A DNA stretch of 64,000 nt, taken from positions 62,001 to 126,000 of the forward strand of contig NMRA01000634.1 in assembly GCA_002633005.1 (NCBI GenBank), written 5' to 3'. Below the pieces are notes generated by a model. It was given only the letters and a program-made list of their open reading frames with translations. It made no database searches and was not told where the DNA came from. Source of the stretch: Phoronis australis. Taxonomy: Eukaryota > Animalia > Phoronida. Below, one piece after another: positions 6,867-60,760 of the stretch; the stretch's first letter is position 1, and each line of letters starts with the position of its first letter. Position numbers and translations under genes: made by a program.

Positions 6867-6915
6867 ATGTCGCGAGCGTTTGTGCTGTTGTCACTTCTTT
6901 ATATTCCTTGCTCAG
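6867..6915 (+). CDS. Exon 1: signal peptide
   Basis: ATG 6867, [16 protein letters not shown](G), basic residue then hydrophobic core; donor G|gtaagt, phase 1. Confidence 0.75.
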
Positions 6916-15900: not shown

Positions 15901-18900
15901 GTTTTTGGTTCAATGGTAGTTTTAAAAGGTGAGGTACCAACAATTTTGCAACTTCCTCTTGTAGTCCATCTGCTGTCACCTTTTAACTTATAAGATACTC
16001 ATGAGCACCTGTAGACACATAACGTTCAAGGTGCACTGTGGACGCATGCCAATGTTTCGCGTTGCTCTTATTCGCAGAAATACATGGTCGACTGCATATC
16101 GACGTCCAGTTTCACTATTATTCACAACGCTTGTCACAACAAGACTTCGTGTACAGTTGAACAATCAACCGCAGTGTTTGGTGATCCCTGTGTTGGAGAA
16201 AGAAAATACATCGAAGTGGACTACGACTGTGTTGAAGGTAGGCTAGGCTAGCAACTTCTCATTTCAACTCTTAAGGTAACGTGGGACTCTTTTCAAATAT
16301 CTACAATACTATAGAATTTAACTTTGTAAAAGTAATTTTTTTTAAAAGTATAATTCAATCTCTACTCTCTTTCAGTTTGCCGTGGCGTGACCATGTCTTA
16401 TCAAAAGTAAATGACAAATAATGATCGACGTTCGTAACAAGACAACTTGATGAATAGCACAAACAAATTAAAAATGATATAAATGTTCAAGACGACACCT
16501 CAAAAACGATTTTACAGTTTTCTAAATTATCATTTCGTCCCTCTTGCCAAAATGGAACACTTTATAAACAAATCCTAACATAAAGCACATATCTGATAGA
16601 TTCCAATCAGCCATCTTTGATATCAGATCTTCCAGAGTTGGTCAAATTTAGACATTTTTGTGGATCTCACATAATGTTAAAGTGTATCAACGACTTTCAT
16701 TTCTTATAGTGAGCATTCTATGGGAAACCTGCTAATTTCATCCCATTTCTTCATAAAACTCCAATATGCTTCAGTTTTAAGATTCCGAACAAAAGGCAGC
16801 GAACCTGTCACGAGATAGTTCGCGAACAGATGCTTCTGTTCATGTTTGCGCCCACAAATGCAACGTAGTTGATCCTGAACCGAAGGCGTGCCAGATCACG
16901 TGACGCGAAGTCTGACCTTTGACCAAAAGATATACGTCACATTTAATCACGTGATGTTTCCGAGGTCATGTTTTTAATCACACGCCATCAAGACACTGGT
17001 TGTTTTCGTTTTACAAGTTGTCTACGTTGATTTAATGTATGAATTACAAATTAATGTTGCTACACCTTCTTAATATTCGTTCTGTTTGCAGAATTGAACA
17101 CTTGTACCGTGTTAGAGCCGTTGGCTAGTTTCGCTTGGAAAGATGTATCGTGTAACAAATCTGATGTGGGATATATATGTAAAAAAGGTGAGGAAATTTG
17201 CTGATGATGATCAATACAGCCAAAAAATACAAGATCGTTGTACTGGTTTGATTTGAATCAGCCATTAGACATGCAATCCGTCGTCTAAGAAGTGAACTTT
17301 TGATTTTAATTAGACCATATACTGCTATAAAACAGGCCCGAACGTGTCCCTTACTCATATGAGAATGAATTTCTGGTCGCCCCCAGAGCTGACACTTCGC
17401 TTTTAAGACCGTGCTCAGCACATAGAATAATATGACGTCTCAAGACATGTTGTAGTGCCTGGTTTCAAACAGTAGCGAACTTTCACGCCTGTAGAAGCTC
17501 TGAAATCCCCCTAATTTAATTAAGGAACAAGAGACCAATTTCATACAGGTAAGTGGTCTAAATCCGATTTTATAGAAGGCAGATTGGTAACCCCTTTTAA
17601 TCTTAACCCAAATTTGGAGAATAATGCACACCAGACAGACCACTTTTGAATGGCGTTTACGTTTACCCCATGACCAATTGATGACGCAATGGTGTCAATT
17701 CGCTCCTTTCGAATGCTCTGGTCAACGAGACACTGTTAAATTTGCAAGGTCAAGTTTACTCTCGAATTTAGCCATTATGAACATTGGAATCTGTTGTCCA
17801 TCACTAACATCTGGTTCTCTATTGGTCAATAAAGGATGAGGTCAGCCGCGGCTGTACTTTAAGGAGAATGCCAGCCAAAAAACAATCTATTTTGTATCAA
17901 TTTATATCGAATAGTTCCACACAATAACAACAAGTTCAGTTATTTTACTTGACACATGACGGCTGACGGAGGTGTTGCAATTAACCAATGATATCACAGG
18001 CTCGAACGCAGTCTGGTCAGCAGTTCACAACACGCTTGCTGGTATAGCTTGAATTCATCTTTTTACGCCAATAAATCACCAAAATTCGAAGTAAAACCCT
18101 TACAAACACATCGCGTTCTTGAACAAACGTTTTGTCTTATTCCTCTTTTACGGATTTATAGGTAATTGAAAGTACCGTTGCCAGAATTCGATAGGCCAAT
18201 GTACCAAAGCGGTCGCGAAAGTTTGGGGTGTGTTCGGTAATAAACTCGAATTGTTCTTCCTTGAGATACAGAAAGGAGAACATAGCTGTGTATTTTAATT
18301 TTAGTCTATCGATTTTTTCATTTATAAATACACAAAACGCTTGTTATCCCGGCCAGTGACTCGGAACGCGATCAGGCCCGTCACGGGCGCGCTGAAGACA
18401 TCACGAACATAAACCAGCAGAAGTTGGAAACTAAACTTCTAGTCACAAAAACTAGAGAGCCAAAGAAGTAATGCGTATTTTGGTGAATTGGCTACGAAAC
18501 TGCAAATCTATTTACTCCTCGGGGTCGCGAAGTCAGGTTCCCCTTTCCCTTCCACAGGCCTTGGTGCCCGGTCAATTAGCTTTAATGCATCTAAAGCCGG
18601 TAACGCAGTGATTTATTTGTTGCTGGCTTCTCAAAACATATGCACTCACGAACACTCTAATGAGACAGACTTTGACATTTTGTTTCAGTTTTATACATGC
18701 ATTTAATTAGTTAGAGTGAGAATTATTCATTTCGAAACAGAACACACAGAAATAAACGTCAATATGGCAACTTGCAATCCCGACTTAGAAGAGTGCTCAT
18801 CAGTTTTTCTGTCCTGGCATGAGCTATTTGGAACGCCGGCTCTTGTAAGTGAAATCACTTACGACAAAATGCCGGCCACAGACACGGCGATGTTTCACGG

Positions 18901-21900
18901 CCTTATACTTGATAATAACGGCTTACTTTTCATTCTTCATTGCCGTGAGTCACTTTCGAAGAATTTTGGGCTCTCGAGGAAATCGAAAAACGATAGACCC
19001 GCTTTCCTCGCAGCTTCATATTTCGCATAAGCGGGAACGATATACCACATCATAGCGGCACTCGATTACTCTGTAGAAGAACCACTGACTTCGCTGCCTC
19101 GTTTACTCACCTTCCACATAGGTTAACGTGACAACTCTAGGTAAGGTAAGATCGACCGTATACGAGAAGATGCAGATATAGACCGACTTATACAGTAAAA
19201 ATGACCAATTAAATCGGGTGGCATTCTCCTTTACATCAGCTGAACGTAAAACGCAAAGTTTCCAACCTTAACCGTCTCTTAGAATTAATAAACAACAGAT
19301 GAGAGAAATGAGAGACAATTTATAACGGTGAGGTACGCAAACAAACCAGATCGTAGCGTAGTACGGTAAAAAATCTGATCAAAAGACCCCGGTTTCCAGA
19401 TGTAAACAAGACTCAAATGCTAACGATAGAGACTGGATTTTACATTACCAAATGTTCTTTTCCTGCTTATCTACCGGGCCAGTGTGCATTTGCTACGCAT
19501 GCGCAACCCAAATTCTTGAACTACTGTATGATGAAAGTACATGTATTGTATATGTACTAATATTACAGAATTGACCCCGTTGTTGACCTTGATCGTTTCG
19601 ACCATCCTCTTTAATGACCGATGTCAGACGATCATAGTAAATTTTGCTATTTCCAGCTCGCCAGACTTACTCCCCTTTGGATTGCACTTCTGTTAGTGGA
19701 AATAGCGAGTCTGCGACGTGCCCCGCAGGTAACGTATACCTCAAATCATAACTTTTCCTTCACAATGACACTTTCGATCATCTAGTTATCTGTTCCTTTT
19801 ATTGAGGGTCATCAAGAGGTTTGAAGACATTGTGGGTAACAAAAAATCTTCTTGAATAATTGTTTTTCCTGCCAAAATATGAGCATGTCTCAGTCAATGA
19901 GCTCGTGCCACTAGGCAATCAGCAAATTTTAAATGCATGTAAAATACACGTCAAATGTTGAAAAATCAGATTATCATTTGTTAAAAAACTATATTGTACA
20001 CACAGCCCCGTGCCAAATTGATGCCAATTCTTTAAAGAGATAAGTAATGCCGCACATCAAACGCTGTAATATCGAGTTTACATCTTACAACTCCTAAGTG
20101 ACGGGGGCAAAGCTCGATCGATTCTTTTGCCTGGGTTCGGGCAATACATGTAATTGGTGGATCGCAGGAAAAACTGCATCCTTTCTGGCGTGTCAAACAA
20201 TCAGCACAAATCGTACTTGCGCTAACCACGTCCATGGATTTCTGAAAATGTACTGACAATCTCCGCCCGTCGGGTTGTCTGCTGGCGTCCAGCGAATGAG
20301 AAATGTCCGGACATCGGAATACTTTCAAATTTACTCTGTGCAACTATTGGTTATTTTTCACTCCGACGCCAACCCCACGCTCCTGGTCTCCCAACTTCAC
20401 GCCAATACGTCCATTATCGCCCAGACAGTCATCAGATCGTGGTTGGATGCTTTATACGACTTAGACTTCGGCCTAAGTCTTTTAATTCCTACTTACATGT
20501 ATGTCTCGGTCACAAAGGGCGTTGACGTCAAATATCATCAATTACTAATCGGATGAAAAATTACCCAATCACGCTAAGTATTGGGAATATCATTAGCACT
20601 CAATCAGCGCTACTGGCCGAGCATAACCCAGTATGCTACTAAGGCTTGGCAATTCACGCATTGACAGCTATACCTGTCCTGCTTCATTTCTAATTTTTTA
20701 TGACCTCTTCTTAAATTTCAGACTTCCCACAGGGAGTCGCCTGTCGATGTTCGTGTGCTAATGGCCGATGGAAACATTATCGACGTATATGCGACTGTTC
20801 TCTCTGCAGCTCCAACGCCGTTAGTGTGGCGCGCTGTTGCAAACCTCACTCAGGCTATTCACCCGGCCCCGACTACAAAGCGTCTGTTGAATGCGTAGAA
20901 AATCGTCAAACACCCCTAATCGCAGGACCCAGTGCAACTTGCCCAACAAGTAGGTAGACTTGCCCTTCCAGCAACTTGAACAAATAAGTCAATTTGTGGA
21001 AATACAAACCTCTTAGGTGTCGCTTAAATATCTTAGACTTTCTGCAATTTTGCCTGTGTAGGAGAATGCTTCTGCCAAATTGTGCGAAGCACAATCATGA
21101 TTTTTATACACCTATGCTACCTGTAGTATTCGTAGCTTATGATATTAAGCTCAAACTGCTGAACAGTTTGATACCAGTAGCCGTACAATGACGTTTTTAT
21201 GGGGTGCCAGTCACGAATCACGTGAGAATCCTCTCTCACTAATGTCAGATGTTATTTCTGCAAATTGGCGAATCTTTGATTGGTTTATCCTCTGTCACAG
21301 CGCATCCCAGATGTATGGATTTCTTGCTTTAGTTTACCAAATTCGCATAACCAGGTATATCTTTACGGTCATAATCTCACGTTGCATTGACTTTGCGTCA
21401 GGAGCACCTATTTCACAGAAAAGTAGACCTCAGTCATTTATATCCACTGCATAGGCGAGTTCAAGAGAGGGCCCAGGGCCACACACCCCACCCACCCTTA
21501 CGGTCACGACCTTCTAAAAATAAAAACGCCCTTCTTAGGAACAAAAGAATATTTTTGTCTTCGAAAATTGTGGTTGAGTTCTCCTTTAGACATCCTAGTT
21601 CCACCAGTGCACTGTTGCTTAAATATCGTGCAGATTCTCTGTAAAAGGTACATTGCACCAAAAGAGTCTCCCACGTCCGCTGTCCACGTCTTCTCAAACT
21701 ATAGAAAAAGCTGTAAAACACCAAAGAAAAATGAAATAATGTGCTTTTTGGACCAGCCTGCAATACCGTCATGTGCTATATGATTCCATAACTACATTGG
21801 CCAAATAAACTCGGTCAGTTTACACAATCCAATCGATTTACACTCCCTTGACTTATATCTTTTAGATAGATTCTTTGGCATTCCACCAACTGTCAGAGGT

Positions 21901-24900
21901 CACTTAGAGGAAACATTTAGATATTCTCAGGAAAAACGCATTGGCTATTGGTAATTAGCGTTGATATGAATGTCGTTCTGCAGATTTCCCAACAGCCACC
22001 GACTGCTCGTGTGGTGGCTGCAGTGCAGACTTTGAAATTATCAACGACAACACGTGCAAATGTTCTTCTGCCACGACTGACTGGGCCACAGCACAGTGTT
22101 GTAGGATCGTATACACGCCGAGATCAACAGGTTGGTTTTAAATGTTAACTCGTGTTTAAGATGGCACACCGCGCCGTGTCAAAGGAGAGAAATCAACAAA
22201 AGTGTCAGTGGAGTTTCTCAGTAGTCACGGACTTTTTTATCAACTTCGCATGCTCCCCAGTGTGACAGTAAACTAAAAATATCAACTCGCTTATTAAAAA
22301 ACCCGGAAATTGTGTGAAACAAATAGTAAATCGTTGTGGAGTTCAGAGGATGACATGTCCGTTAGACTACTCGTCAGTTTGACATGCCTGTAAACTAACC
22401 GAAAAACATCAAGGTTCAGGCCCGTCCCGACGAAGGTGAAGTGGACAACTTAGAAGGACGTGAGTTTTTTGGATTGATTGGCGCGCAACTTTCAACTTTA
22501 AAATACCAAAATCATGTGATCAGTAACCTTTCCTGTAGAAATTGTCTAAACTGAGAGCCATAGCTCCAAGCAATTCAGACAATTTCTTGCCATGAATTTC
22601 TCCCAAATATTCCCCCCAAATGCTCACCGATGCAGAATTTTCCAAATTTTGCCATATGGACGTACTTTCGGAGCCATGGTTTGCAGGATTTTCTGAACTG
22701 TGATGAGCGATTGTCAAGCAAAGAAAAGGCTTTGTGAGAAACAGACCAAATTTCGGCTTACCTACAAAATAAATTTAATAGTCTCTTATCTGGACTCATT
22801 GTTTCTCATTCCGTGTAAATGTCCGAAAATGCGGCATGGCTTACATTTGGAGCTTGACAGTTGAACGTACGCCATATGACAATCGGTTTGACGCGTGGTG
22901 TGCCACTATAAATTGCTTCTCTATAGGAAATGTTGCGGAGCAGTACTTTCCTTATACAATGTAGACCAGTCGCCTAGAGCACTTAGCATAGATGAACGAG
23001 ATACCCACATCTGACCATGGGAGCACTTAGAGTTCAACTCAGTTTATTAGGAAATGGGCGTCTGTGGTTGTCTGAACTCTGGGTGCAACCCCTGGAGACC
23101 TTACAAGGGGGTCAAAAATGAGCAAGCCTAGATGGTTGAGGTACTTACCAAAACTGATTTAAACAAAAAGTAGCACCGCACTGAACACCGAATGACCCAT
23201 GACAGACAAATTGCAAGATGGAATGGGTCCGGCAGAAGCCAAAAAAGGACACCCAAAAATGAGCTAGCTGATACATTCGAGGTAACATAAAAACAATTCC
23301 AGGTGATTCAATACATGACACTGATCACTAAATGCCCCATGACAGACAACATAAATACTGTTTGCGCCCGCCTGAAACTTCCAAAAATTTCAACCACAGT
23401 ATGCCATTAAAAATTTGAGCTACATTAGATATTCGAAGTAGCAGCTAAAACTGAACTCTCTCCTTGCTTAAAGGTGAAGGCAACCTTTTTTCATGTCATT
23501 TTTAGCAAAAATAAGGTTTGTTGATTATCCCAGACATATTTTTTTTCACTTTATTACAGCTTTTCGTAATTGAATTAATTATTCGTTCTTTACTCTAGAA
23601 GTGACGTATTGGGAGCCAAGAATTTCGCGCCAATTTCTTTTCATATACATGTAGTCTGACTGTGGGAGCTTTCGAGCCACTCATTGTTCTACCTCGGTTG
23701 TGCTAAGTTCAGTCGTCGTACCAAGAGTTCTGTGCAGTGCTATTGTTCGTTTTAAATCAGTTTTGGCCGCTACCTCAAATATCTAGGCTAGCTCAATTTT
23801 GACCCCCTTGTAAGGTCCCCAGGGGTCCCATTCAGAATCCAGACAACGGCAGACGTCCATATTCGTATACACTGAGGCAGACTCTAATACTCCTATGGTC
23901 AGATATTGGTACCTCTTTCATCTATGCTAAGTGCTCTGGGCTGCCGGTCTATTAGTTCTCTGCACAGTAATTGTGCGGCCACAGTAAACATACCAACTTT
24001 CGCGCGTATGCATAGTTTAGGCATTTGCGTTTAGCATACACAGATCTTAACCGTGAGTGACGCCTAAATATTAACAACGGATTTAACACCACTCTGCATT
24101 TCAAATAAGCCGTGAATATTTTCGCAGATCCGTTGGTTGTAGTTAAGCAGTATGTTTTAACTAACGGACAAAGCTGAGTTTTATACAACTGTAGAGTCTG
24201 CTTTTCAGATTTTCTGATCACGGCGTGCCTCAGTTCAGTTCTAGTCAGTGGCATAGTGACGAATGTTAAACCAGTGTCAACTCTCGCCGTCTTTGCTTAC
24301 GTAAAAGAAAACAGCCTCTACTGTAATGACTGCAGGTTCGATCATTGTTTTATTGAAATTGTAGGTACGTATCTTGCAGACAGATACTTGTCAATAGACG
24401 GCATCGTAATCGACGGACAAGATGATTGGACACCTTTGGGTGTGACGTCAGAGGATGAGTGTTTGCAAGCTTGTGAAAATCAGGTGATTAATTACCATGA
24501 CGACAACAATATTCTTTATATGTTCTCATGCTGTCTACGTCATGCAAATCATTTGGTTACAATGACGTTTGACACAAGTAGTGCAGGAAGGGGGCAATCC
24601 TTGTTTATATTCGAGCCCCAGTTCAAATACCATTCCACAACCTGCTGTTCTTGTCCTTGGACCAATTTGCTTCATTTAAGTCACTAACTATCGGCTACTA
24701 TTGTCAAAGCACACCTAACGCTAGAAAATAACTTCAGGGATATAACAAACAGTGTGAAGGGGTGTATCAACGGTGCGTTTACATTTAAAAATCAGAATAA
24801 CAGAACACCTTGTTGAGGTCTACTTGTTAATTTTAGGCTGGTTGTAATTCTGTTGAGTTCAAGTCGTCTGATAGCACCTGTCGACTGAGCGGGTCCGCAA

Positions 24901-27900
24901 TAAAGCATGTCGGCCTATCAGGGTTACTGCAACAACAGTCGGGATATACGTACTACGAGAGGCTGGACGGGGAAGGTAAGGATATGTAAATCATCACAGG
25001 AGACACGATCTTTATCCAACCATTTTGTCATTGCTGTCATTTATTCTACTGCACTATTGTTAGTGATGGAATAGTTCCGACAAACGCGATCGGGCTATGC
25101 GCATCATGGTTCTAATACGATTATTTAGTAGTGTCTTGGGTTGACCACGAGGCCACATTTCCGTAAGTCACAGGAGCTGTCACCTACATTGTACATGCGT
25201 TCTACATGCTTTCTTATTTTAGCAATTCACATCTATATCACATTAAACGAAATACAATAAAAAGGTTTGGAAATGGTTATGAAATTAAATTGCTTTCACT
25301 GTGTGCTTCTGTTTACCCACACATTTAATCAGGTGATCGTGACACGTGCTCCATGAATTTATCAGGGACATACAAGTTTCCTTGCTACCCCTTCGTAAAT
25401 CCTTGAGCTGCATTGTAAGTGCTCCTAAGGCATCGTAAAACCATCTTTACGCTTTTGTTAGCAACCAGTACTTGTGGGACACAGGTGGTGGAATAACACG
25501 CCGTGACAACTCATAGGACATGGTCTCCAACAATAACGAGCTGTCAGTTCTGTTGAAATCTTGAAATCACTTCAACATGAAGGAGCAGTTTGAGATTAAT
25601 TACGAAATGGCTTGTTGTATAAAAATCAAAAAAATTTTGTGATGTATTGCCGCTTAAAGACGAAAACTAATTTGATCAAGATAAAGAAAATCTTAGATTG
25701 AGCTAAAAGAGTTCAAACTGTAGTGCAAGATCTTGTTTGGTCTCTGGAAATACTCACTACATTAGGACAAAACCCAATCCGATGGTACTCGAGTCATATC
25801 ACCGGATCAGAAGAACTAATAGTTTCTAATAACCACCACCGTGTGGCAGTGCGATCATTTGCTGCTTATGCCGAGTAGTCTACCTGAAACTGTTTCTCCT
25901 AAGGAAAGATACGGCGACTCAGTTGGGACACTGAAAAACTCCCTTTCCGCCATGTCAAATTAGCATTCCGCCCGGGCAAATTAGTAATCTTCCGAGAGAC
26001 ATGTAGTTTAGTATTCCGACCTGGCCGATTACTAATCTGCAAGCCACGCGGAATGCTAATCTCGTATTTCGTCATTTTATTGATTCATTGTCTTAACTGA
26101 GTCATGGCTTCAAAAACTCATTTTTGAGAATTGCCTTTGCGAAGGACAGGTCCCGTCAATCTCTACAGGCCAATTTGTATTGTTATCCATTTGTACACCT
26201 TTTGACTTGCAACTTTTGTTATTTATGTCTTAAGGGGCCAGATTACCTCAGAAAAGTTTTACAATGTAAGTAATTTCGTAAAATCGTAGGAAAACACGAG
26301 ACCGAGTTTGTGGACTGCAACTTTTCGTTTTAGGAGACATCCGAAATTACTTCCACAAGTTTGACGGTGTTTACCTATCTGGTGTCACTGCTATTGATAC
26401 CATACGCGACTCCACGTTGACTTTGACTTCATGCATGACTATTTGCTTGGAGGACAGCTCGTGCAAATCGACGGATTTCGATTCGTCAACAAAAACATGC
26501 TACTTGCGAGGTGGAAACAGCTTTGATGGAACTCTCACTTTGTCCAGATATTACTACCACTTTGATCTGATCACGAGTACCCCAGGTGAGAATTTTTTAC
26601 CTTTTACGAGACAGGGCAGCGCGTGAAGTCGTCTGTGTATAAATTGAGAGTAATCGCTATTTTGTCAGTGTTACGAGCGCCTGTTTTATCAGATCGTAAG
26701 CCCGATCGTAAATAAAGAATAGCGACACGTTATTGCAAATGCAATGAAAACAAATACAGATGCAACTGATGTAGAGTTGACTGTCATATTCATATCAAAC
26801 AACCATCATAACCACCATCATAAATTGTGTGCGCGACGACCTTGGCCTCGTCTCATTGAAGGTCTTAAGTCCAGTCGTAGCTGTAGCGTAGACGGTCGTA
26901 GGCACGTTACTGCAAACGCGGTGGTGTATTAGTACTGCCTTCACGAGCACCACAGTGTGTTTACCTAAATGTATACACAGCAATTGCCAAGGTAAGGTTT
27001 TGTCTTCAATAACCTGCAACTACGATTGTGACTTTGTATTATATAGACCAGACAGGGAGTAGTCTACCTTTAATTAAATGTGTCCAGGCATGCGTTCTGT
27101 GAACGTTAACTTCCTTGCGTAAGGTTAGTGTGGTTACGTGCTTTGCATGTTGTGAACAATAATATCTTGCTTGATCTTACGTACTCAAGAGGACGTCGGG
27201 TCTAAGGAATGCTGCTCAGATCAACGGGAGAGGAGGAGGTACATGTATATATCGCTTAGTAACTTGATGAAACTCTTGTACTATGAGTCCCTGCTCTTAG
27301 ATGCCCATGCGTACTTTTTGAAGATATTTTTCTGGTGCTGAAAGAATTTGCTGTCCAAGAAGGTGGGAATGTTTAACCATCTTTCCATAGCCTTTGGGAG
27401 ATACTACATAGAAATTTCTTGGAACATTCATCACCACCGCCGTCATGGCAACTTCCAAATCCCAGCAACACCTAAGCATATCCCTACAAAGGCCGTCGTT
27501 AACAATTTTCAACCTTGGTCATTATGTTGTCACAGCACGTAAAAATGATAAAGATTTTGTGGCGAATGCTGATCGCTGTACTTTATACAGCAAAAAAGAA
27601 ATGAGTGTTGCGTTATGTCATAATGGGATTGACGTTCGTCAAACAAGAAATAAATCTGAAAACCCCACTGACATCACATTTCAATGGGTTTTTGGATGCC
27701 CGAGAGAATGAAATCAACCTGACCGAAAACATAGAATGTACACGTATCTTTCCAGGCGACATTAGTGATGGATATTCCACTAATCGAAAACCATGAAAAT
27801 GCCAGTAGCATGGTCACTGTGGCAATCACCAGAATTGTCGGAGTAGTGGAGTCTTTTGTCAACTTTATGAAACTGCTCTTCAATGCAACATAAAACACGT

Positions 27901-30900
27901 GACGGTACTATTTTTTGACTTTCAGATCCATTCTTCACTTGTGACACCGTGAAAAGCAGTGAAGCTGATGGTAATCAATTCTCTTGTGGAGCAATAGGTA
28001 TATACTTAAGTATTGTGAGCGTATTGTTGTAATTTGGTTGAAAACCGACCAAAATGAACAGAAAAATGCGATACATTATTCTTTTTTCATATTCGGGGCC
28101 ATCGTTTATCCCACTGTCTGTAGTCTTCATAAGATAATTACAACTATAAAACATAGGTCTCTTACGCATGTATGACGCATGCAGTTTCAGTCATCCATTC
28201 GTGTTTGCCTTAGTACAGAGGAAGGATACGCTAATCTAGATTTTCAGCTAACTACAGGAGTCCAAATTTTCAATAATTGTGAATATTCTACAGCGATACT
28301 CTTAGGTTATGTTTTGACGCTACCGTTTTATGTCACCAAGGAAGAAGAGATCCAAATGTGTTTTATCTCTCATTTCAGCCACCTGGATGGATCATTTTAC
28401 CTACGTCCAAGCCGCAGTATTGGCAGGTTACAATAATGAATTGCCGGACAGCGACAAAAATGCATGTCTCCAGCAATGTCACGACTCTGCCAGTTGTAAA
28501 ACTATCGACTATAAAGACAAAGCAGGTAATAAACTACTAAAAAGTAATGCCTCTTGAATTTTTTGTTCATAAATTCGACAGTGACGTTTATTTTGAAAAA
28601 TTCAAAAATGCCCTAATAGTATAAGTCAAGACACACATTCTTATATTAAGTTTAATACAACAACCCAATTATTAATTTCACAGTGAAGCTTTTGTAGTGA
28701 CGTGAATCTGAACCAAAAGTCACAAAATAGAGATTCCAAAGACATTTGGTTCGCACACGGATTCAACGAAATGCAAATTTACGAAAACTACATACCTCAT
28801 AACGTTGGGATGAATGAGTCTGTAAGTCTATAAATGAATTAATAAATGGTTTTATTGAGTATAATGCTTCTTGTATGGAGTTCCAACAGCTTGATACCGG
28901 CTGATGGTCAATGGCATTCCGTGGAGCACCACTGATTCCTACTGAAAGTGAAAGAAATTAGACAATAAATCCATAAGTTTAGTAGAAGTTACATAACAAT
29001 TGTTCGAAGGTGCAGAGAGGAGGCAGTGTGTCCTAATGTAATAGATGCCCGCTTTCTTTACTCGAGGTTGGGAGTTCGAGTCCCCCTGGGCCACATTGTG
29101 AAATCCTGCAGTTATATTTTATTGCAAATCGCACGTCATCAGCTTTTCATTTCGTTCCAGGGAAAACGTTTGTATGCCACATCAGTTACTCAGATCGCTT
29201 TACAGTATCAGAGTACACATCAGGCGACACGTTTTTCGAGCATTTTATTTTTGACAGTTATCGAGGTAAGTGTGGGTGAATTGTCGGGACGTTATTGTTC
29301 AAGTATGCTGGTATGTGTAATATGTAAGCCCCTGGAGCCCTCCCTCTTTACATATGTGGGTGCAGTGACAGACTGACTGCGTGGCCATTTGAGGGAAAGC
29401 CCGCGGCACCTTCCTTTCAAATGTTGGGAAAAGGCGACTTTAATATAACTTTCAACATTGATTTTAACGGAATCAAACCACAAAGACAAGAAATATTTTG
29501 GATAAATCGCATTCAAGCTGAATAACATGAATATTGAGCCACGCAGGTTTACAGTCAACACAATATTCTCAGCCGGAAGTTATTTTCTTGGGTTTCTACA
29601 CCGTTTTGTCAAACAATCCCATGTTGTCATGTACTCTGTCACAGCGCCACCTATATGGAAATGTAGCACTGGGAAAGAGTAAGCTGTTATACTGGACTTC
29701 GTATGTAAAGCAGGCATCACGTAATGTAATGTGATATTGCATGGTAGAACGCGCATATATACTTAATATCATTGGTAAACAAATACAAAAACGCAAACAA
29801 GAACATCCATTCGTACACGCATGCGCACCTCAGGAAAGACTATTCTCGTATATGTAAACAATTGCTACATGGAGTTAACATGAGCAATAAAATTTCCCAT
29901 TACTTAAAAAAGCTGTCATGCACAAAATTTTTATACGCAAATAAATCTTCAGCATTTTAGTACTCATGAGTATATGTAACAAACTTGTGAATATTAGGTA
30001 TATTTTTGACACCCCTCCTTGTAAATCTACTGTTTGGCTAATAATAGCAAAATGTTTAATAAGAAATCATGCGTCTCATAAAGTCCAAGTATAACACGAT
30101 TGTAAGAAAAACAGTTGGGAAGCTGAATGTGACACTTTTTGTATTTTTTTAATTCCATTTTCCGGTAAAATGGCGCCTGCAAAAAACGTGAATTTTGTTG
30201 CTCTGTAAATTTTCAAAGTTATCTTCACCTTGTTGCTTGAAATTGGACGACCAACAAGAGCCACATCATTTACTGCACCATTAGACGGCGAGGAAGTTCC
30301 AGAGAATGAACTCGAGTGGTTTTCATCATTAAAAAGGGAGTTAAAAAGGTCTAATGAGGAACGAACTTGTCATGTGAGAATAGTTTATCTGTAGTGCTAA
30401 AGCGATATATGGGCCTCGACAACATCACCGTTGAAAGAGTGCACCCGATTGGCGATAAAGGTACTATCATTGCTAAGTTTTCATTCTATAAACAACGACA
30501 ACAAGTGTGGAAGGAACAGAGAAAGTTTCAAGGTTCGAATTTTTTTGTTATGAGGACTTCCCGCATGAGATCATTGTCAATCGAAAGCGCTTGATACCTT
30601 TTCTCAAGTCAGCGAGACGGTGCCCGCATGTTAACAAATTGGCTGAATAGAGATCGGTTGGTGATTGACGGGAAAACCTATACAGTTGGCAATAAAAATG
30701 CGATTCCCACCTTCAGTGAATAGTGGCGATCAAGAACTCGACAAAGATGGTGTGCAGAGCACCGAAGCAAGTGTTGTTCATAGATTAGTGTTCGTGGCTA
30801 AGGTCTCGTAATTAAAAGTTTCTGAATCAGTATTCGGTAATTCGGTCCTGTTTATTTTTTCTGTGCCCAATCTTTACGGTTATTAGTTATGAGTCCCTAT

Positions 30901-33900
30901 TGTCCTCCTGTAATTTTTATAATTTTGAGAGGTGAAGACATATAAAAACATGTCCTTTATCGGTTGCCCGTGATGAACATAGTACAATTGGTAACATACA
31001 TACGGGTAACTAAATGGTGTCTTATACCCGTTGAGCACTTATTGTCGATAAGTTTCACTGACTGTTTCTTTAGAAGAATTTATCATTTACATTGGTTTAG
31101 GGTTCCTGTGGTTTCGGTTGTTTTTTGGGTGTTTAGAACACACAATGTGATTCATTTGTACTTAATGAGGAAGGTTGTATTGTTCAGTGAGTTTAGAAGT
31201 ACCAATGAGCTAAATATACTAGTTGTATTTATATCATTGAGAAGTACCTTAATTATCTTTTTATGCATCTTTTTAACTTCAGAGATCTAAGAACTCGGTC
31301 AAAAAGACGAGATTTTCCACTGTATAAGGCAACTAGTGTGCGTGCATTATTTTCTATTGTGTTGATGAATATTTATGGACCACTAACAAAGATAACCCTA
31401 AATTTTTTATGACATTTCACACAAAATCGCCAGTTACAATAACTATTTTATTGTGGTTTGTGGCGATTTTAATTTGGTCCAAGATTTTCACCTTGATTGT
31501 CATAATTATATCTACGTGAATAACCCTAAAGCGCGTGACCAAATGCTGGAAATGAAGGTGGCTCTTTATCTGACGGACCCATGGCGTGTTTATCATCCCT
31601 CAGCGAAAATGTTGACATGGTCCAGGAAAATCCGGTTAAAAAAGATGGGTTAGATTATTTTCTTGTTACCCAACAATTACTCTCGCACATCAAAAATGTG
31701 GAAATACAGTCGTGCTACCTATAGGACCATAACAACGTCGTCTTAACTATGCAATCAACTACGTTTAAAAAAGGACCGGGATTTTGGAAATTTGATAACT
31801 CACTTCTAAAAGACAAAGAATATGTCGAGAATGAGATTTTGTTTACGAAAAAACAATCTGCTCTTCCAGTATACGATTTTAACAATATACAAAAAAATGA
31901 CTCTGATAGTCTTCAGTTTTATATATCTGATCGATTGTTTTTGGAGACGGTATTGTTAAATATTCGAACGGTAACTATTCCATATTATATCTCTAAGAAA
32001 AAAAGAAAAAATAGACAAGGAAAAGACTTAGAAGAGCAGTTAATGTCCTTACAAGATATGTTCAATTAGAGTGACGATCCTGAAATTGCTGTATTGGGAA
32101 ATAAGAAGTCAGAATATGAGGATTATCGCAAAGAATACATGCATGGAGTAATGGTCAGATCAAGAGCTAACCGGGTTGAAAACGGCGAAAATCCAACAAA
32201 ATATTTTTGAGCATTAGAAAAACGAAATTTTGTGAATAAGAATGTAACTAAGCTACTAAGGTCAAATAATGCTGTTATCAAGGATCATTCCGCTATCCTC
32301 TCGGAGATCACTTCTTTTTATAAAAATTTATACTCCTGTAAAGACGGCGACCTTGTTGATGTTAGTTTAAATGAATTTTTGGCATCCTGCCCAATGACTA
32401 AATTGAACCAGTCTAACCGAGTCGAACTTGAAAACTTTATCACTTTGGATGAAATTCATGCAACTCTGAAAGATTTAAAAAACAACAAAAGCCCAGGTTG
32501 AGATGTTACAGTAGAATTTTTAAATTTTTATTTTTTTGGCCAGACCTTAAATATTATTTGTTCCGATCTTTTGAAGATGGTATCAATAAAGGAGAAGTAT
32601 CTACAACGCAAAAACAGTGTATTATCTCAATAGTACCAAAAGAAAATATATCAATAAGCCAAGAGAATTCATTAAAGATTGGCGTACAATTTCACTATTG
32701 AATGTTACAAAACGTCTGAAAAGCGTCGTCGGACCCATTATTCACGAGAACCAACAAGGTTTCATGAAAGGCAGATGTATTGGGGAAGACATAAGAATTT
32801 TGTATGATGTAATTTAATTTTTAGACTGTAAACCCTTTCCCGGACTACTCTTGATGAATAATTTTGAAGAAGCTTTCGACTCAGTTTCATGGTCTTTCGT
32901 GCTCATGGCATTATCATACTTTAACTTTGGCCCAAGGTTCATTGACACGGTCAAAACTTTCTACAACAAATCTTGTATTTGTGTTCTCTAACATGGATTT
33001 TTCTCTAAGTTTTTTGAAATAGAGAGAGGCTGCCATCAAGGAGACCCCATTTCTCCTTATCTTTTTGCATTATGTGTAGAAATACTGGGTAATTTGATTT
33101 TAAAAACCAGCTGAAGGAACCGATAATCTGTTCTGGAAGGAAGTTTTAAGCGATGTTGTTCTCCTGTTTCAAATGTGTGACAAAAAGTAAAATATAATTT
33201 ACTCTCCCCTTTGGTATAATTCAAAGATTAAAGTCGGTAGAAAATCTGTTTTCTATCAGACCTGGTATGAAAGGGGAATCTATCGTGTGTGTGATTTGTT
33301 TATGCTGTACGTTCTTTTATGTCATTCGAAGAACTCTGTATCAGTTATAACTTTCAATCTGCAATACTAGAATTCTATGGATTAAGAAGTGCAAGACTGT
33401 GCACCGTTCAAGGGTCTTAAGAATAGACAAGACAATATCTTTTTACTAAATTTTCCAAGTTATATTTATAAAATTCTGCATAATAAATCTCAAGCGGTAA
33501 ATATTTATGACACCTTAGTACAGAAACTTCAGACAGCTTGTTAATATACAAAAAAGTGATCATCTGAAATAGATATAAACGCCGTCATAAATAATGTAAA
33601 TTTTAGTGACCCTGATACATGGTGGAGAAAAGTAAGTAAAGTCTCCTTCAATTGTACAAAAGATACAAAATTGCGTTGGTTTCAATACCGTTTAATTCAC
33701 AAAATATTGCCAACCAATAATTATTTGCATAAAATTAAAATAAAAACAAGTGATTTANCAAAAAACGTGAGTTTTGTTGCTATGTAAATTTTCAAAGTTA
33801 TCTTCACCTTGTTGCTTGAAATTGGACAACCAAAAAGAGCCACATCATTTACTGCACCATTAGACGGCGACGAAGTTCCAGAGAATGAACCCGAGTGGTT

Positions 33901-36900
33901 TTCATCATTAAAAAGGGAGTTAAAAAGGTCTAATGAGGAACGAACTCTCTACAACAAATCTTGTATTTGTGTTCTCTAACATGTATTTTTCTCTAAGTTT
34001 TTTGAAATAGAGAGAGGCTGCCATCAAGGAGACCCCATTTCTCCTTATCTTTTTGTATTATGTGTAGAAATACTGGGTAATTTGATTTTAAAAACCAGCT
34101 GAAGGAACCGATAATCTGTTCTGGAAGGAAGTTTTAAGCGATGTTGTTCTCCTGTTTCAAATGTGTGACAAAAAGTAAAATATAATTTACTCTCCCCTTT
34201 GGTATAATTCAAAGATTAAAGTCGGTAGAAAATCTGTTTTCTATCAGACCTGGTATGAAAGGGGAATCTATCGTGTGTGTGATTTGTTTATGCTGTACGT
34301 TCTTTTATGTCATTCGAAGAACTCTGTATCAGTTATAACTTTCAATCTGCAATACTAGAATTCTATGGATTAAGAAGTGCAAGACTGTGCACCGTTCAAG
34401 GGTCTTAAGAATAGACAAGACAATATCTTTTTACTAAATTTTCCAAGTTATATTTATAAAATTCTGCATAATAAATCTCAAGCGGTAAATATTTATGACA
34501 CCTTAGTACAGAAACTTCAGACAGCTTGTTAATATACAAAAAAGTGATCATCTGAAATAGATATAAACGCCGTCATAAATAATGTAAATTTTAGTGACCC
34601 TGATACATGGTGGAGAAAAGTAAGTAAAGTCTCCTTCAATTGTACAAAAGATACAAAATTGCGTTGGTTTCAATACCGTTTAATTCACAAAATATTGCCA
34701 ACCAATAATTATTTGCATAAAATTAAAATAAAAACAAGTGATTTATGCTCTTTCTGTGGTGAACACAGTGAAACTTTTCTCCATCTGTTTTGGGAATGTC
34801 GTCTTGTCTCCGGTTTCTGGCTCCTATTTGCTGAGTTGTTAAAACAAACATGTCATGTAAATTTTTATGTGGACAAAATAACAATGTTTTTTGGGAAACA
34901 TTCAGTGAGAAAATTGTACATTAATTTGTTGATCGTGCTAGCAAAAAATTACATATTTAGCCAAAAGTTTGTTAAAAAATCGCAATTTTCATAAACTTTA
35001 TTAAACTACATCCTGAAGAAAATACGGTACTTCGGTTGATTCAAAAAGTCTTCGTTACTGGCAACGATTATTTTCTTATAAAAAGTTGTAATACTTCCAA
35101 ATACGTCGTGCCAATAGGAATTGTCAGTAAGAGTGAATGTAGTTCCTGACCACTTTTAGACGCAGGTATTATTCACGATATTTACGAGCACGGCGAGTTT
35201 TAAGCTTTGATGAAAGTATGTATATTAACCATTTGAACTCCCCCTTGATCTAATCCTAAATAAGCCGTAGTTTGTTAAATTAATATTTATGTAAAGCATT
35301 ATATCTGGACGTAGGGGCAGCCATTGACGATGGTCACAATTGTATGAGTATCATTGTTCATCAGGAAATTACGTGAAGGACTCTTTCCTGAGAATAGACG
35401 GGAAAGCAATGAGGAGCAGCAATTTTGCCAGTTACTCGAGCAAGACTGTGAACGAGTGCATGCAACTGTGTTTCGACAACCCTACCTGCAAATCCTTTGA
35501 CTACAAATCCTCGAATGGCGGTTGCTATCTCGGAACTGTAACTCGGCACACGGAATCCAAACTCTTTACAAACTACACGGGGTTTGACTACTACGAGTTT
35601 ACCGGCAGGCGAGGTAAGTGCCAGTGTTCTCTTGTGGAGAATATCTGTTAGGTTGTGTTCAAAAGGCCTAAACATCCGATTTGTGCATATAGTTCCCTCT
35701 GCGTCCAATGAACGAGATTTTTACACACATTTCGGTAACAATGTTTATAGTGTTTAGAATGATAATCAAAACTTTACAACTTTGTAAAGTAAAAAAATGA
35801 CTCCGCACTTTTTTGCGTAAAGGTGCTTTTCTTATATTTTGTCCGTATAAATTGTCGAGATATATTCGAAGCAGGGCTGGTGTATTGTAAACACTAAATA
35901 CGAAAATGAATAATACATTGTAGTTATCTTTGTTTCCGTTTTAGCAACTTCATTTCTCGGCATTTCAAAAACAGAAGCCGCGGTAATTCTCAATTCGGCT
36001 GTCGGTAAATAATCTTCAATAAATAAATGAAAAATCGTGGCATGCTGTTGTTCTTCTATGCTTTGGTGACTGATTAGACAAAAGTTCAGGAAATCGGAAT
36101 CAAAAAACGTGAACGGAAAGTACGCGTTGAGTAAGAGCATAACCGTACGATGATCATTTCAAAAGTAAAAGTACGCGTTCATTGATATGAAGCGCCAAAC
36201 TTTCTCCAACGAGTACATGTACCTTCTGAGCTTAGAAAAGTGTAATATGAAGCCCAAAGGGTTCTTAAACCATGAAACGCCAGGAGTACCTCCCTACTCT
36301 TAGAAATGTGCTTATGCACCGGAGTGCACAACGAGATAACTCATTAGATTTGAGTTCTAACTAGAACTCTTTAATGTCTTAGATCTTAGAGCAAATCCGT
36401 GGCTGATTATAGGCATGGTGCTGTTTTGAAATATTCGTAAATAAGTATAGAATTTCTTGATGGTTCATCTGATAAAAGACAACATTGGGTAATGTTTTTG
36501 ACGCGCAAATTTATAACTTTGGAATAAATTGTGTTTTTTAAATGGCCTGTTTAAGAAACTCTGATTGATTTTTTTATTTTCATCTTGGAAATAGAAAGCG
36601 AGGCTATCAAATATTCCAATCACGATATATTGAGACGGACTAAGCTGAGATATTATTTGGCGAAGTGGGTAAAAAGGTACGCTTCAGAGAAACAAAGTCT
36701 GAGAAAACGAGACAAAAGTCTACTAAAAAGGTGCAGACATACAGTTCACAGACCTGCAGGTGGTACCCCGTTGTTTTAGTCCTCCCGCTTTTTTGTTAGC
36801 AAAAGGTCCACTTTTTCAGAGACTACAGCACCGCATATTAAAGACTGGGTGCGCGCATGATCTAGGCTATGCTCTTACCGAGATAAAGTCCCAGCGAATG

Positions 36901-39900
36901 ATCCTCACGGAGCAGTTTACCTAAAGACGTCCCAATGCATGTACGTTCCGCAACTACTGCTTAGGTTAACTAACTGCGACAGTAATCATAGATATAGGCC
37001 GCCGTTTTTAAATATTGTTTTCTTTTATCACTGTTGGTATTCAAGTAATATCCTCCCCTTTTGAGTCGAAAAAAGACTTGTGTCACGTACAAAAAATCCA
37101 ATATCTACCCAAAATATTTTACAAATTCAACGATAACACCATTGTCACAACCATGAGCCATGCATCTTGTTATCATTCTTTTAAGCAATTAGTTAATTCA
37201 TTGTGTATCGATTGACTGTAGAAATGAAAAGTCACGAGAAATTAGGAATATAGAAATTTACTGAGGGGGCAGTCGTTATTGTAGAAAAAAGAACAAAGGC
37301 ATGGATTCCCACCACGTCCTCTCTCGACTACATCCCCTATAACACCAACTGCCACCACAGACTATGTATGGTGCCTGGTATCAACGAGTCTCAGGCGAGA
37401 GATGCTGTCTATGAAACCTAGGCAATTAATTATAGAGGCACTCAATCCGTTGTACTTACAGCATATCCTACAGACTGCTCATGCAGCGACTGTGCTTCTT
37501 ACGACTATCTGAACGATGTGACGGGCTGCAAATGCCACGGTTCCGACAATTGGGGAATGGTTCTCTGTTGTCACGCAAAAAGTTTGCGAAGACCTCGTAA
37601 GTACACGAAACAAATCGTTGGTGTTTACATGTAACATCTCAGTCGAAAACAGGTTGGGTAATTCTACATAAAATGAAATCGGTGATGATACTAAAGGTGC
37701 ATTAAAAATCGAAAACATTAATGCTAACATAAGAAAATCTATTGTTTTCAGTCAAAAAGGTCCTTCCAAGGCAAATTTGAACCAGTTCTGTGCAAAACCA
37801 GGTTGTACTTAGGTGCAAGTATCTTAAGTTCTGTTATCTACAACCCCTACAAGTATGTATTTTCTGATATGTGAACAAATTTCCTAACCACATTTATTAC
37901 TTTTATTTACTTGCCATTATTTTTTCACGATATATGCGTTTTAGTACTATTATTTTACTTTGTACAAAGATTTGAAAAAATGTTAACTATGTTCGGAATA
38001 TGTCCCGAAAATAATAGGTGCGTCGCAAGCTCCGTTTCCAGAGATACAAAGGAGACCGTGTATAGGCGATATAAGGTCACTTACTATGACTGATAAGGTA
38101 CAGAAATATGAGTGTACAAATAACATAAAGATAAAATAATAATCTCTGGAAAGCTGGGCAATAAAAAGCGCCAGCACTCAGGTAAGAGGAACCACCCAAA
38201 AGAGAGGGTGGAGAGGGTGGGAAAAAATAAAGAGAGATTAGACTAGAACCTAAGTGCTGCTAAAGCGAAGTACTGATGGCAGGAAATACAACTTTAATGA
38301 GAACAAAGGAGCCCTATGACACGTGACAAGCATCAGCCTATGGGAGCCAGGAGCTGACTAAACTCGTTGCAGTAACGCAAACGAACCAATAGTGAGGCTG
38401 GAAATGGAATGTCCTAGTGCAGAGGACCGCATGCGAATCTACACAATTGGTTAATGGACAGTCCGAAAGATCGGGGTATAAGTGGGACGAGTCCATATTC
38501 TCACATAAACATATTTAACGAGTGAAATATCATTTATGTTCGGAATATGTCCCGAAAATAATAGGTGCGTCGCAAGCTCCGTTTCCAGAGATACAAAGGA
38601 GACCGTGTATAGGCGATATAAGGTCATTTATTATGACTGATAAGGTAAAGAAATATGAATGTACAAATAACATGAAGATAAAATAATAATCTCTGGAAAG
38701 ATGGGCAATAAAAAGCGCCACGAGAGATGATGAAGACAGCTCATGCCCATCCGCAGGGACGCACCAAAAGAAAAGGGAGGAAAAAGGAGGCATTGTGTAG
38801 ATTCGCATACTTACGGAGGCTGGCAGCCGAATACCCAACCCTAACTCCAGGGGCCAAGGCTGGAGGTTCTTTTGTAAACATGTTGATAACGGCATTTTCA
38901 AGTGAACGATATGTCAGAATTTTGAAATAAGTCACATTTTTAATTATCCACCTTTAGAGTATTTTGGGCCAAAATGGAAGTAGTCTTGGTTTTTGAAGGC
39001 TTTGTTCCCAAAAACTAGAGCCTAAACCGAGATTCTGAGACCGGTTCCCTTTGGGGGTAATAAGCAGCACGTATTTGAAATTTCATAGCACTCCGGACAC
39101 GCATCGCCGAGAAATTGGTGCTCAAAAATTGAAATAAACTCCAAAATCGCAACGCAAGAATTGGCCAATAACGCACGGCGGCGATCGAGAAGTTCACTTT
39201 TGGCATCATATCAGATCTTTCAGGAGTTTCATGACTGTGACACAGGTAGTCCAATANGGTACAGAAATATGAGTGTACAAATAACATGAGGATAAAATAA
39301 TAATCTCTGGAAAGATGGGCAATAAAAAGCGCCACGAGAGATGATGAAGACAGCTCATGCCCATCCGCAGGGACGCACCAAAAAAGGGAGGAAAAAGGAG
39401 GCATTGTGTAGATACGCATACTTACGGAGGCTGGCAGCCGAATACCCAACCCTAACTCCAGGGGCCAAGGCTGGAGGTTCTTTTGTAAACATGTTGATAA
39501 CGGCATTTTCAAGTGAACGATATGTCAGAATTTTGAAATAAGTCACATTTTTAATTATCCACCTTTAGAGTATTTTGGGCCAAAATGGAAGTAGTCTTGG
39601 TTTTTGAAGGCTTTGTTCCCAAAAACTAGAACCTAAACCGAGATTCTGAGACCGGTTCCCTTTGGGGGTAATAAGCAGCACGTATTTGAAATTTCATAGC
39701 AATCCAGACACGCATCGCCGAGAAATTGATGCTCAAAAATTGAAATAAACTCCAAAATCGCAACGCAAGAATTGGCCAATAACGCACGGCGGCGATCGAG
39801 AAGTTCACTTTTGGCATCATATCAGATCTTTCAGGAGTTTCATGAGTGTGACACAGGTACTCCAATAGGGTACCAGTATTCATAATTTTGAAAGTTTGAT

Positions 39901-60592: not shown

Positions 60593-60760
60593 TGTTCAGA
60601 AAACTTCCTCGCGAGGACGGGGCTTGATAATTGCGTGTACGTCTGGGGATTCATCGGGGTCTGATGGCGTTATGGAGTGGAATGTAAACGCATCGTTGTC
60701 GCTGGAGTTCTGCTCAATGTGGTGTGTCTTCTTCTGGTGTGGTCGTCCAGTGCTCTGGTG

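Follow-up and report, generated by a model that had tools for sequence, protein, structure and literature searches.

Resistin is an immune hormone of mammals. Resistin and the RELM proteins of vertebrates are described as stand-alone molecules of ~110 aa that trimerise through a helical coiled-coil tail, as far as the accounts drawn on here extend (PMC8253364, PMC4467842). The resistin head carries ten cysteines in the arrangement C-x11-C-x8-C-x-C-x3-C-x10-C-x-C-x-C-x9-CC and includes a C1-C10 disulfide (PMC6545779). A survey of the family's origin across 116 vertebrate genomes found members in lobe-finned fish and tetrapods only; its authors conceded that this restricted range could come from search sensitivity (PMC4467842). 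Outside the vertebrates, Pfam Resistin matches at E<1e-5 have been tabulated for sea anemones, four in Nematostella and one in Aiptasia (PMC6214176, Table 2 and Table S14). These non-vertebrate Resistin domain matches are known here from the table rows alone.

The Cys/His-rich domain of PCSK9 is a second point of comparison. Its modules M1-M3 are said to resemble the resistin homotrimer, and one secreted multidomain chain holds three resistin-like modules that bind partners. The modules have 6 cysteines each, lie contiguously behind a subtilisin domain, and are likened to resistin on structural grounds (PMC9113161).

The window, which is the whole 64-kb stretch of DNA analysed, holds a gene, likely from an invertebrate, that shares several features with resistin/RELM (PF06954; RELM-beta 1rh7; resistin 1rfx and 1rgx). 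These are the head sequence, the terminal CC of the cysteine frame, a phase-1 intron just past Cys2-Pro-x, and predicted secretion. It differs in that the head is repeated within a 1287-aa chain, with short linkers, lectin/PAN flanks and no tail; the whole protein is therefore not of the small, stand-alone, coiled-coil hormone type. Two acidic copies carry 9 cysteines each, and one copy is split by two PAN domains. Compared with PCSK9, the modules hold 9-10 cysteines and the third stands two PAN domains away from the others. The PCSK9 family and chain were absent from the Pfam and PDB matches of the repeats and exons, and no peptidase family matched any exon scanned with Pfam.

Gene model and domain order

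The gene model comprises 24 exons on the + strand (Table 1). All 23 introns are GT-AG, 20 of them are in phase 1, and the only stop codon is at the end of the model, followed by AATAAA at 46026. GC content is 0.47 in the exons vs 0.39 in the introns. The hydrophobic N-terminus is a likely signal peptide. The best 19-residue window elsewhere reaches 1.2, and neither a membrane helix nor any membrane-length hydrophobic segment was found after the N-terminus. The product is predicted to be a secreted mosaic protein. A search for overlooked phase-1 exons that encode at least two cysteines returned seven candidates in two introns, none domain-like.

Table 1. Exons of the gene model and the domains assigned to them (positions in the window)
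Feature	Position	Strand	Evidence
E1: initiation codon, likely signal peptide	6867..6915	+	first ATG of open model; hydrophobic N-terminus
E2: PAN domain 1	7534..7770	+	Pfam PAN_1 E 1.5e-8
E3: PAN domain 2, six cysteines	9088..9342	+	Pfam PAN_1 E 1.1e-9
E4 (9708-9885) and E5 (10437-10540): N-terminal part of C-type lectin-like domain	9708..10540	+	E4 Pfam Lectin_C E 0.015, under cut-off; E5 no Pfam match; motif and cysteine count
E6 (13232-13365) and E7 (16078-16237): SUEL (Gal/rhamnose-type) lectin domain	13232..16237	+	Pfam SUEL_Lectin E 0.0099 (E6), 6.4e-14 (E7)
E8: likely C-terminal part of C-type lectin-like domain	17092..17187	+	inferred from motif; no Pfam match
E9: repeat 1 first part, cysteines 1-2	19657..19728	+	72 nt, phase 1-1
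E10: repeat 1 second part, linker, repeat 2 first part	20722..20949	+	Pfam Resistin 8.1 bits, E 5.4
E11: repeat 2 second part	21984..22130	+	Pfam Resistin 30.4 bits; RELM-beta 1rh7 E 1.2e-5
E12 (24365-24483) and E13 (24837-24975): PAN domain 3	24365..24975	+	Pfam PAN_1 E 0.0045 (E12), 0.012 (E13), each under cut-off
E14: PAN domain 4	26334..26585	+	Pfam PAN_1 E 2e-9
E15: likely repeat 3 first part, two cysteines	27926..27997	+	72 nt, phase 1-1
E16 (28379-28525) and E17 (29161-29265): PAN domain 5, between repeat 3 halves	28379..29265	+	E16 Pfam PAN_1 E 3.2e-4; E17 alone no match; both align to Lingula protein
E18: PAN domain 6, between repeat 3 halves	35365..35613	+	Pfam PAN_1 E 6.4e-14
E19: repeat 3 second part, seven cysteines	37462..37596	+	likeness to E11; profile test
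E20 (41007-41126) and E21 (41357-41482): Ephrin_rec_like cysteine-rich repeats	41007..41482	+	Pfam E 7.9e-8, 9e-5
E22: PAN domain 7	42340..42570	+	Pfam PAN_1 E 7.2e-8
E23: PAN-like	44019..44285	+	inferred from six cysteines only; no Pfam match
E24: final PAN domain, with stop codon	45765..46006	+	Pfam PAN_1 E 4.2e-10

The order of domains is signal, PAN, PAN, a C-type lectin-like domain with SUEL inside, Res1, Res2, PAN, PAN, then the first half of Res3, PAN, PAN and the second half of Res3, followed by Ephrin_rec_like, PAN, PAN-like and PAN. Judged from the predicted protein, the SUEL domain is nested inside the C-type lectin-like domain. E6-E7 continue the reading frame of the latter, and the three cysteines of E8 bring it to six. 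E7 scores 52.5 bits against a Pfam PF02140 cut-off of 31.4, eight cysteines are spread across E6-E7, and the SUEL domain may bind sugar. The EPN, QPD and WND motifs of Ca2+-dependent C-type lectins are absent from residues 181-405, so sugar binding by the C-type lectin domain is not assured.

Four RNA runs, X1-X4, were chosen by species label and examined in bins up to E17. In run X1, each of the nine bins that contain E7 and E10-E17 had depth, on the first-mate-minus side only. Eight exon-free bins had zero depth, and the bin of E8 had none. Depth was roughly estimated at ~0.1-2.6x. Two of the nine exon bins had depth in X2, and none in X3 or X4. The first-pass annotation had looked to RNA-seq for junction support; no exon-exon junction is listed in these data over the bins up to E17.

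Resistin-like repeats and their relatives

The first-pass annotation had proposed three resistin/RELM-like domains within a secreted lectin-PAN protein. The peptides on which it relied are real and are encoded by E9-E11, E15 and E19: eight of nine short motifs were located on the + strand (at 19677, 20724, 20817, 20886, 22079, 27934, 37461 and 37548), and the ninth crosses a splice junction. The outer limits it gave, 19657 and 37596, are the first base of E9 and the last base of E19. The splicing it claimed for repeats 1 and 2 holds, through E9-E10-E11 with GT-AG introns and an open frame.

Pfam scans were made exon by exon, with E11 above the Resistin cut-off of 25, E10 below it and E19 without a match. 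E11 encodes half of repeat 2 and passes at E 5.8e-7. All three of its matches in the PDB are RELM-beta and resistin, and the residues shared with RELM-beta beyond the cysteines are N-T-C, D-W and A. For E10, Resistin is the sole Pfam row. A profile of four repeat rows searched against the PDB placed RELM-beta and resistin as the top 3 of 5 matches.

The other two repeats are weaker when taken singly. Repeat 1 found no PDB match at E<=10; it has ten cysteines and an intron position in common with Retn. Repeat 3 gave nothing in Pfam at E<=10, and its single PDB row is unrelated (E 0.96). Its second half, E19, shares 43% identity with E11 over 37 columns. Among 2895 six-frame fragments, E19 is the top match to the repeat profile outside the training set (E 0.011). 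The score of E19 was reached by 0 of 1000 full shuffles and by 22 of 1000 shuffles that kept the cysteines. The profile score of E15 is not significant, being equalled by 530 of 1000 shuffles; this exon resembles E9 in its size and phases.

The intron position is a further line of evidence. In human RETN and RETNL both introns are in phase 1 (PMC4467842, S2 Fig), and the duplicated exon 2 of the Chinese alligator, the one exon from which the vertebrate position was taken, ends one base past Cys-Pro-x as read by eye (PMC4467842, S1 Fig). The donors of E9 and E10 lie at the same place, and E15 ends one codon later. E9 also equals vertebrate Retn coding exon 2 in being 72 nt long with phase 1-1. 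On this alignment, repeats 1 and 2 and vertebrate Retn have an intron at the same codon and in the same phase.

The one relative found is an uncharacterized protein of Lingula anatina, LOC106180721 (XP_013420250.1), with 37% identity over 578 columns (E 4e-105). It was the one match kept (P0006) of seven from a HMMER search of 1.84 billion representative sequences. The other six (P0001-P0005 and P0007) were dropped, by eye, as repetitive or unrelated and without the cysteine frame. Vertebrate resistins lay above E 0.001 in the same search, which shows its limit. The Lingula protein aligns colinearly with the window gene, starting in the linker ahead of repeat 2 and reaching the Ephrin_rec_like repeats. 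It scores 23.2 bits (E 1.1e-4) against Pfam Resistin, a family that its precomputed Pfam list omits, and the first three places among the 7 PDB matches of its domain go to RELM-beta and resistin. Its repeat 2 also lacks the eighth cysteine. The Lingula model begins just before repeat 2, and on the C-terminal side it has an IgGFc_binding domain and one PAN, whereas the window gene has three PAN-type domains.

Further word-index searches of proteins are weak as evidence of absence. A search of longer proteins with E11 gave no candidate, one with residues 1-460 of P0006 found only itself among 3428 candidates, and one of longer proteins with the four-row profile found only P0006 among 100 candidates. 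Six metagenome loci were rejected: in the one checked, L001, the match runs across a stop codon, in a reading frame that overlaps a different ORF, and the remaining five share its segment and identity.

None of the three repeats has the canonical cysteine spacing exactly. That of repeat 1 is shifted (x11, x9, x1, x1, x11, x1, x2, x9), and repeats 2 and 3 have nine cysteines of ten, the eighth missing in both. Every module other than these two has an even number of cysteines. The resistin head is a six-stranded jelly-roll beta-sandwich. Two AlphaFold models made here had a mean pLDDT of 45-46, which is low confidence, and Foldseek and VIA-align gave no match; searches of the ESM Atlas with E10 and with the Lingula domain yielded no usable result. 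The irregular spacing, the sub-threshold scores of repeats 1 and 3 alone and the lack of a structural match from these models would suit small cysteine-rich exons that merely came to resemble resistin. Such convergence is highly improbable, given that half a domain already passes the Pfam cut-off, that non-cysteine residues are shared with RELM-beta, that a second species matches the same family, that intron position and phase agree with Retn, and that anemones have Resistin matches in the table rows cited above. By sequence, the repeats are very likely homologous to the resistin/RELM head. The Pfam, PDB and intron evidence together bear out the earlier view of this head as a module in a predicted secreted PAN/lectin protein.

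A probably interrupted third repeat

Repeats 1 and 2 are whole copies. The third is not built as first described: its halves, E15 and E19, are not adjacent, and E16, E17 and E18 lie in frame between them and encode two PAN domains. The locus would thus hold two whole copies of the resistin head and one that is likely interrupted. In the Lingula protein the counterpart of E15 is conserved at the same place, with the spacing C-x11-C, and PAN-PAN follows immediately behind it. The second half of repeat 3 is missing there, with E19 falling in a 45-residue gap of the alignment. This leaves two options: a first half may be tolerated without its partner, or an exon may be missing from the Lingula model. 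Variants of the gene model scored 970 against Lingula with all exons, 1025 without E19 and 557 with E15 joined to E19.

A splice switch would account for the same exons if E16-E18 or E19 were cassettes, one isoform joining E15 to E19 as an intact third head and another dropping E19; the interrupted form may then be rare or unfolded. All the joins concerned are phase 1 and in frame, the direct E15-E19 join restores the resistin spacing C-x8-C between cysteines 2 and 3, and E19 is exactly what the Lingula model lacks. Such a switch nonetheless seems unlikely. The bins of E15, E16 and E17 all have reads at similar low depth in X1, PAN-PAN is kept directly behind the first half in Lingula, and no junction read for any form was found in the RNA bins up to E17. 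That the interrupted third head folds as one domain is considered more likely than not.

Proposed function and origin

The best explanation, held slightly above even, is that the two whole heads and the likely interrupted one would be disulfide-held interaction modules of a secreted, multivalent binding protein. A mucus or extracellular matrix protein is likely, and the heads are likely not free hormones or pore formers. The modules would have been assembled by shuffling of phase-1 exons. An old phase-1 intron in the resistin head would have been the entry point for two PAN domains, and the SUEL domain would have entered the C-type lectin-like domain in like manner. The host domains would still fold, with the guest domains looped out.

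The three heads may pack together like the PCSK9 modules, replacing the trimerising coiled-coil tail of resistin. In the resistin head C5 pairs with C8, and this pairing lies behind the idea that repeats 2 and 3 each have one spare cysteine, and that the two would pair with each other or join chains into a polymer. That link is possible, at somewhat under an even chance. The protein would bind multiple glycan or protein ligands simultaneously, in agglutination, adhesion or a barrier. A role as a binding scaffold is favoured by a narrow margin.

The first-pass annotation had hinted at bactericidal activity like that of RELM-beta. Such a targeted killer would use its lectin and PAN domains to bind microbes, and its resistin heads, chiefly repeat 1 and perhaps freed by proteolysis, to permeabilise membranes. 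RELM-beta works via its C-terminal head on negatively charged lipids, according to the parts of the sources used (PMC8253364, PMC13647132), and repeat 1 fits, with ten cysteines, a net charge of +3 by count and a place directly behind the lectin domains. The hint does not extend to repeats 2 and 3, which are each one cysteine short and acidic (-4 and -5), as is the Lingula repeat (-5); a positive charge is ascribed to the resistin head (PMC8253364). The charge and cysteine number of repeats 2 and 3 therefore make RELM-type killing doubtful. The heads are also tethered at both ends in the long chain; RELM-beta pores are estimated at six to eight subunits. According to a review, it has yet to be established, even among the mammalian members, that the C-terminus is a conserved domain for membrane disruption (PMC13647132). 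Killing of this kind is considered improbable, and the multivalent binding protein remains the preferred reading.

No description of an architecture with three resistin heads, PAN and lectin domains was found in the freely available papers searched. The novelty is lower than first held, because anemone Resistin matches are already tabulated (PMC6214176) and PCSK9 has three modules (PMC9113161). The gene shows two nested insertions, a SUEL domain in the C-type lectin and a PAN pair in a resistin head; both break up domains, which automatic annotation then overlooks.

Heads that are recognisable by sequence and share the internal intron, together with a matching domain in a brachiopod, would date the domain to well before the vertebrates and show it as a shuffled module. 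The sequences suggest that the resistin domain long predates the vertebrates and likely started as a binding module. A bolder joint reading, which is rather unlikely as a whole, takes the gene to represent the ancestral resistin state, a two-exon phase-1 module in large lectin/PAN proteins of invertebrates; vertebrate Retn would have been excised from such a protein and would have gained its coiled-coil tail afterwards. The three heads would fold into a trimer within one chain, fastened through the spare cysteine that repeats 2 and 3 each have, the PAN pair would be plugged into the intron of one head, and the cationic first head would be a lectin-aimed antimicrobial. If true, this would supply a missing link between resistin and the three-module domain of PCSK9. 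Two questions become testable with these findings: whether the head attacked membranes from early on or gained this function in mammals, and whether resistin and the three-module domain of PCSK9 descended from such repeats.

Gene model and domain order

Motif lookup placed the peptides of the first-pass annotation correctly on the + strand; their interval, window 19657-37596, begins at the first base of E9 and finishes at the last base of E19. These exons belong to a 24-exon + strand gene model (E1-E24, 6867 to 46006), derived from a splice-site listing and translation by coordinates. All 23 introns are GT-AG, 20 of them phase 1, and GC is 0.47 in exons versus 0.39 in introns. The translation has 1287 residues and one stop, at the end. 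The N-terminus is hydrophobic and no membrane-length segment follows it.

The domain order, built mainly on Pfam scans of single exons, comprises nine PAN-type, two lectin-type and three resistin-type domains and zero enzyme domains. There are two nested insertions: the lectin domain encloses SUEL, and repeat 3 is split by two PAN domains. The whole SUEL lectin domain lies between E5 and E8 of the C-type lectin-like domain (9708-17187 for the enclosing domain), outside 19657-37596.

Features of the gene and the window
Feature	Position	Strand	Basis or remark
Signal	N-terminal	+	hydrophobic N-terminus
PAN, PAN	after signal, before E4	+	Pfam
C-type lectin-like, N-part	E4-E5	+	Pfam below cut-off (E4); motif and cysteine count
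SUEL	E6-E7	+	Pfam
Likely C-part of C-type lectin-like	E8	+	no Pfam match; three cysteines bring the domain to six
Repeat 1	E9-E10	+	
Repeat 2	E10-E11	+	
PAN	E12-E13	+	Pfam
PAN	E14	+	Pfam
Repeat 3, first half	E15	+	size, phase, cysteines, Lingula counterpart
PAN	E16-E17	+	Pfam
PAN	E18	+	Pfam
Repeat 3, second half	E19	+	
Ephrin_rec_like	E20-E21	+	Pfam
PAN	between E21 and E23	+	Pfam
PAN-like	E23, 44019-44285	+	six cysteines in PAN-like pattern; no Pfam match
PAN	after E23, last domain	+	Pfam
Decayed LINE-type retroelement	~30200-35000, between E17 and E18 (intron 18 region)	+	stops present; zf-RVT match at 34548-34991
Broken LTR retrotransposon	55700-61600	-	gag-like, RT, RNase H, integrase pieces; partly duplicated
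Near-identical duplications	14135-15068; 32955-34242 and 30180/33759; 37978-39681		beside single N bases; likely overlapping contig ends left by assembly
Long inverted repeat	22962-23951		arms 80-85% complementary, flanking a segment rich in repeat-derived RNA reads; likely MITE-type
Repeat similar to the 22962-23951 element	~17850-19240		

The annotation had joined E15 directly to E19, passing over E16, E17 and E18. With 20/23 introns in phase 1, both this join and the E15-E16 to E18-E19 joins are in frame. The in-frame direct join favours a third head switched by splicing, an unlikely reading overall and one compatible with a binding scaffold.

Resistin homology of the heads

Repeat 2 is a true resistin-domain homologue, as indicated by sequence matches and intron position. 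E11 alone scores 30.4 bits against the Pfam Resistin cut-off of 25 (E 5.8e-7), its PDB matches (3/3) are RELM-beta and resistin, and a four-row profile places both at the top of 5 PDB matches. Repeat 1 is very likely also a true homologue, having ten cysteines and the C-x11-C and C-x9-CC spacings of resistin; on its own it is weak (Pfam Resistin E 5.4) and has zero PDB matches.

Repeat 3 is likely an interrupted candidate homologue. Over 37 columns, E19 shares 43% identity with E11. With a profile built from the Lingula domain and repeats 1 and 2, it was the best non-training match among 2895 six-frame fragments (E 0.011), scoring above 1000/1000 full shuffles and 978/1000 cysteine-keeping shuffles. 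E15 has no significant similarity with this profile; it is assigned to repeat 3 because of its 72 nt, phases 1-1 (as E9), two cysteines and a Lingula counterpart with C-x11-C. Of the three resistin/RELM-like domains originally proposed, this one is interrupted by two PAN domains. The proposed resistin cysteine frame holds in part for repeat 1; spacing differs from the canonical pattern in all three repeats and the eighth cysteine is missing from repeats 2 and 3, both counting against resistin identity. Structure predictions were of low confidence (pLDDT 45-46), and fold searches with them gave zero matches.

Gene structure adds independent support for the resistin identity of the heads. In human RETN and RETNL both introns lie in phase 1 (PMC4467842 S2 Fig), and the duplicated exon 2 (69 nt) of a Chinese alligator gene, read by eye, ends one base past Cys-Pro-x (PMC4467842 S1 Fig). 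E9 and E10 end at this same place, E15 one codon later. The evidence is the position within the domain, phase alone meaning little in a gene so rich in phase 1 introns. Mere convergence on a resistin-like appearance, to which the cysteine departures would speak, is very improbable given these matches and the shared intron. The protein as a whole is not a resistin hormone family member.

Lingula relative and RNA depth

Among 7 matches from 1.84 billion representatives there was 1 real relative, the uncharacterized brachiopod protein P0006 (Lingula anatina XP_013420250.1); word-index protein and ESM Atlas searches found no other. A brachiopod as sole relative, together with the domain architecture, points to an invertebrate source for the window. 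P0006 is colinear with the window protein (37% identity, 578 columns, E 4e-105), the shared stretch running from the linker that precedes repeat 2, across PAN, PAN, the first half of repeat 3, PAN and PAN, up to the Ephrin_rec_like repeats. The PAN-PAN order after the first half of repeat 3 is therefore conserved. A 45-residue gap corresponds to E19, this half being either missed by the P0006 model or lost. The Lingula repeat 2 has nine cysteines, scores 23.2 bits, slightly below the Pfam Resistin cut-off, and matches RELM-beta in the PDB (E 3.4e-5). The P0006 model seems cut at its 5' end, directly before repeat 2. At residues 661-919 an IgGFc_binding domain, known from mucus proteins such as FCGBP, replaces the C-terminal PAN run.

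RNA depth was checked over 15200-30150 in four runs (X1-X4), E18-E19 lying beyond this span. X1 had depth solely on the first-mate-minus side in nine bins holding E7 and E10-E17, and zero depth in the eight bins free of exons; the bin of E8 was empty, and repeat reads masked that of E9. X2 had depth in 2/9 of these bins, X3 and X4 in 0/9. In none of the runs did an exon-exon joint over this span reach the listing threshold. This pattern, at a depth roughly estimated at 0.1-2.6x, is consistent with a rare spliced + strand transcript, library strandedness not being on record and no junction shown.

Precedent and predicted function

A search of 116 vertebrate genomes reported Retn solely in mammals, saurians, an amphibian and coelacanth, and the word 'invertebrate' is absent from that paper (PMC4467842). 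Pfam Resistin is listed for Nematostella (4), Aiptasia (1) and 0/6 corals as table rows (PMC6214176). In PCSK9, three resistin-like modules pack together within a single chain (PMC9113161). Precedent thus exists for invertebrate Resistin matches and for the three-module idea. The literature searched, domain-architecture databases and subscription papers being outside its scope, held no account of resistin domains together with PAN or lectin domains, of the shared intron or of the nested insertions.

The first-pass annotation had also hinted at RELM-beta-like bactericidal activity. RELM-type killing depends on the head being cationic and on lipids that carry negative charge (PMC8253364, PMC13647132). 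By net charge alone it would fit repeat 1 only (+3), the remaining heads being negative (repeat 2 -4, repeat 3 -5, Lingula -5), and a targeted killer is improbable.

Vertebrate resistin trimerises via a helical tail (PMC8253364), which is absent from the window protein; the packing in PCSK9 may instead be the model for its three heads. Resistin has a C1-C10 pairing (PMC6545779). The cysteine count is even in all modules except repeats 2 and 3. As C5 pairs with C8 in resistin, the missing eighth cysteine would leave a free fifth cysteine in each, and these may pair with each other or with another chain. EPN, QPD and WND motifs are all absent from the C-type lectin domain, so any sugar binding is more likely on SUEL or PAN. 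Judged by its domain families, a secreted chain of PAN, lectin and resistin-type domains without an enzyme would be a multivalent binder, and a binding scaffold is the somewhat favoured prediction for the function of this protein.
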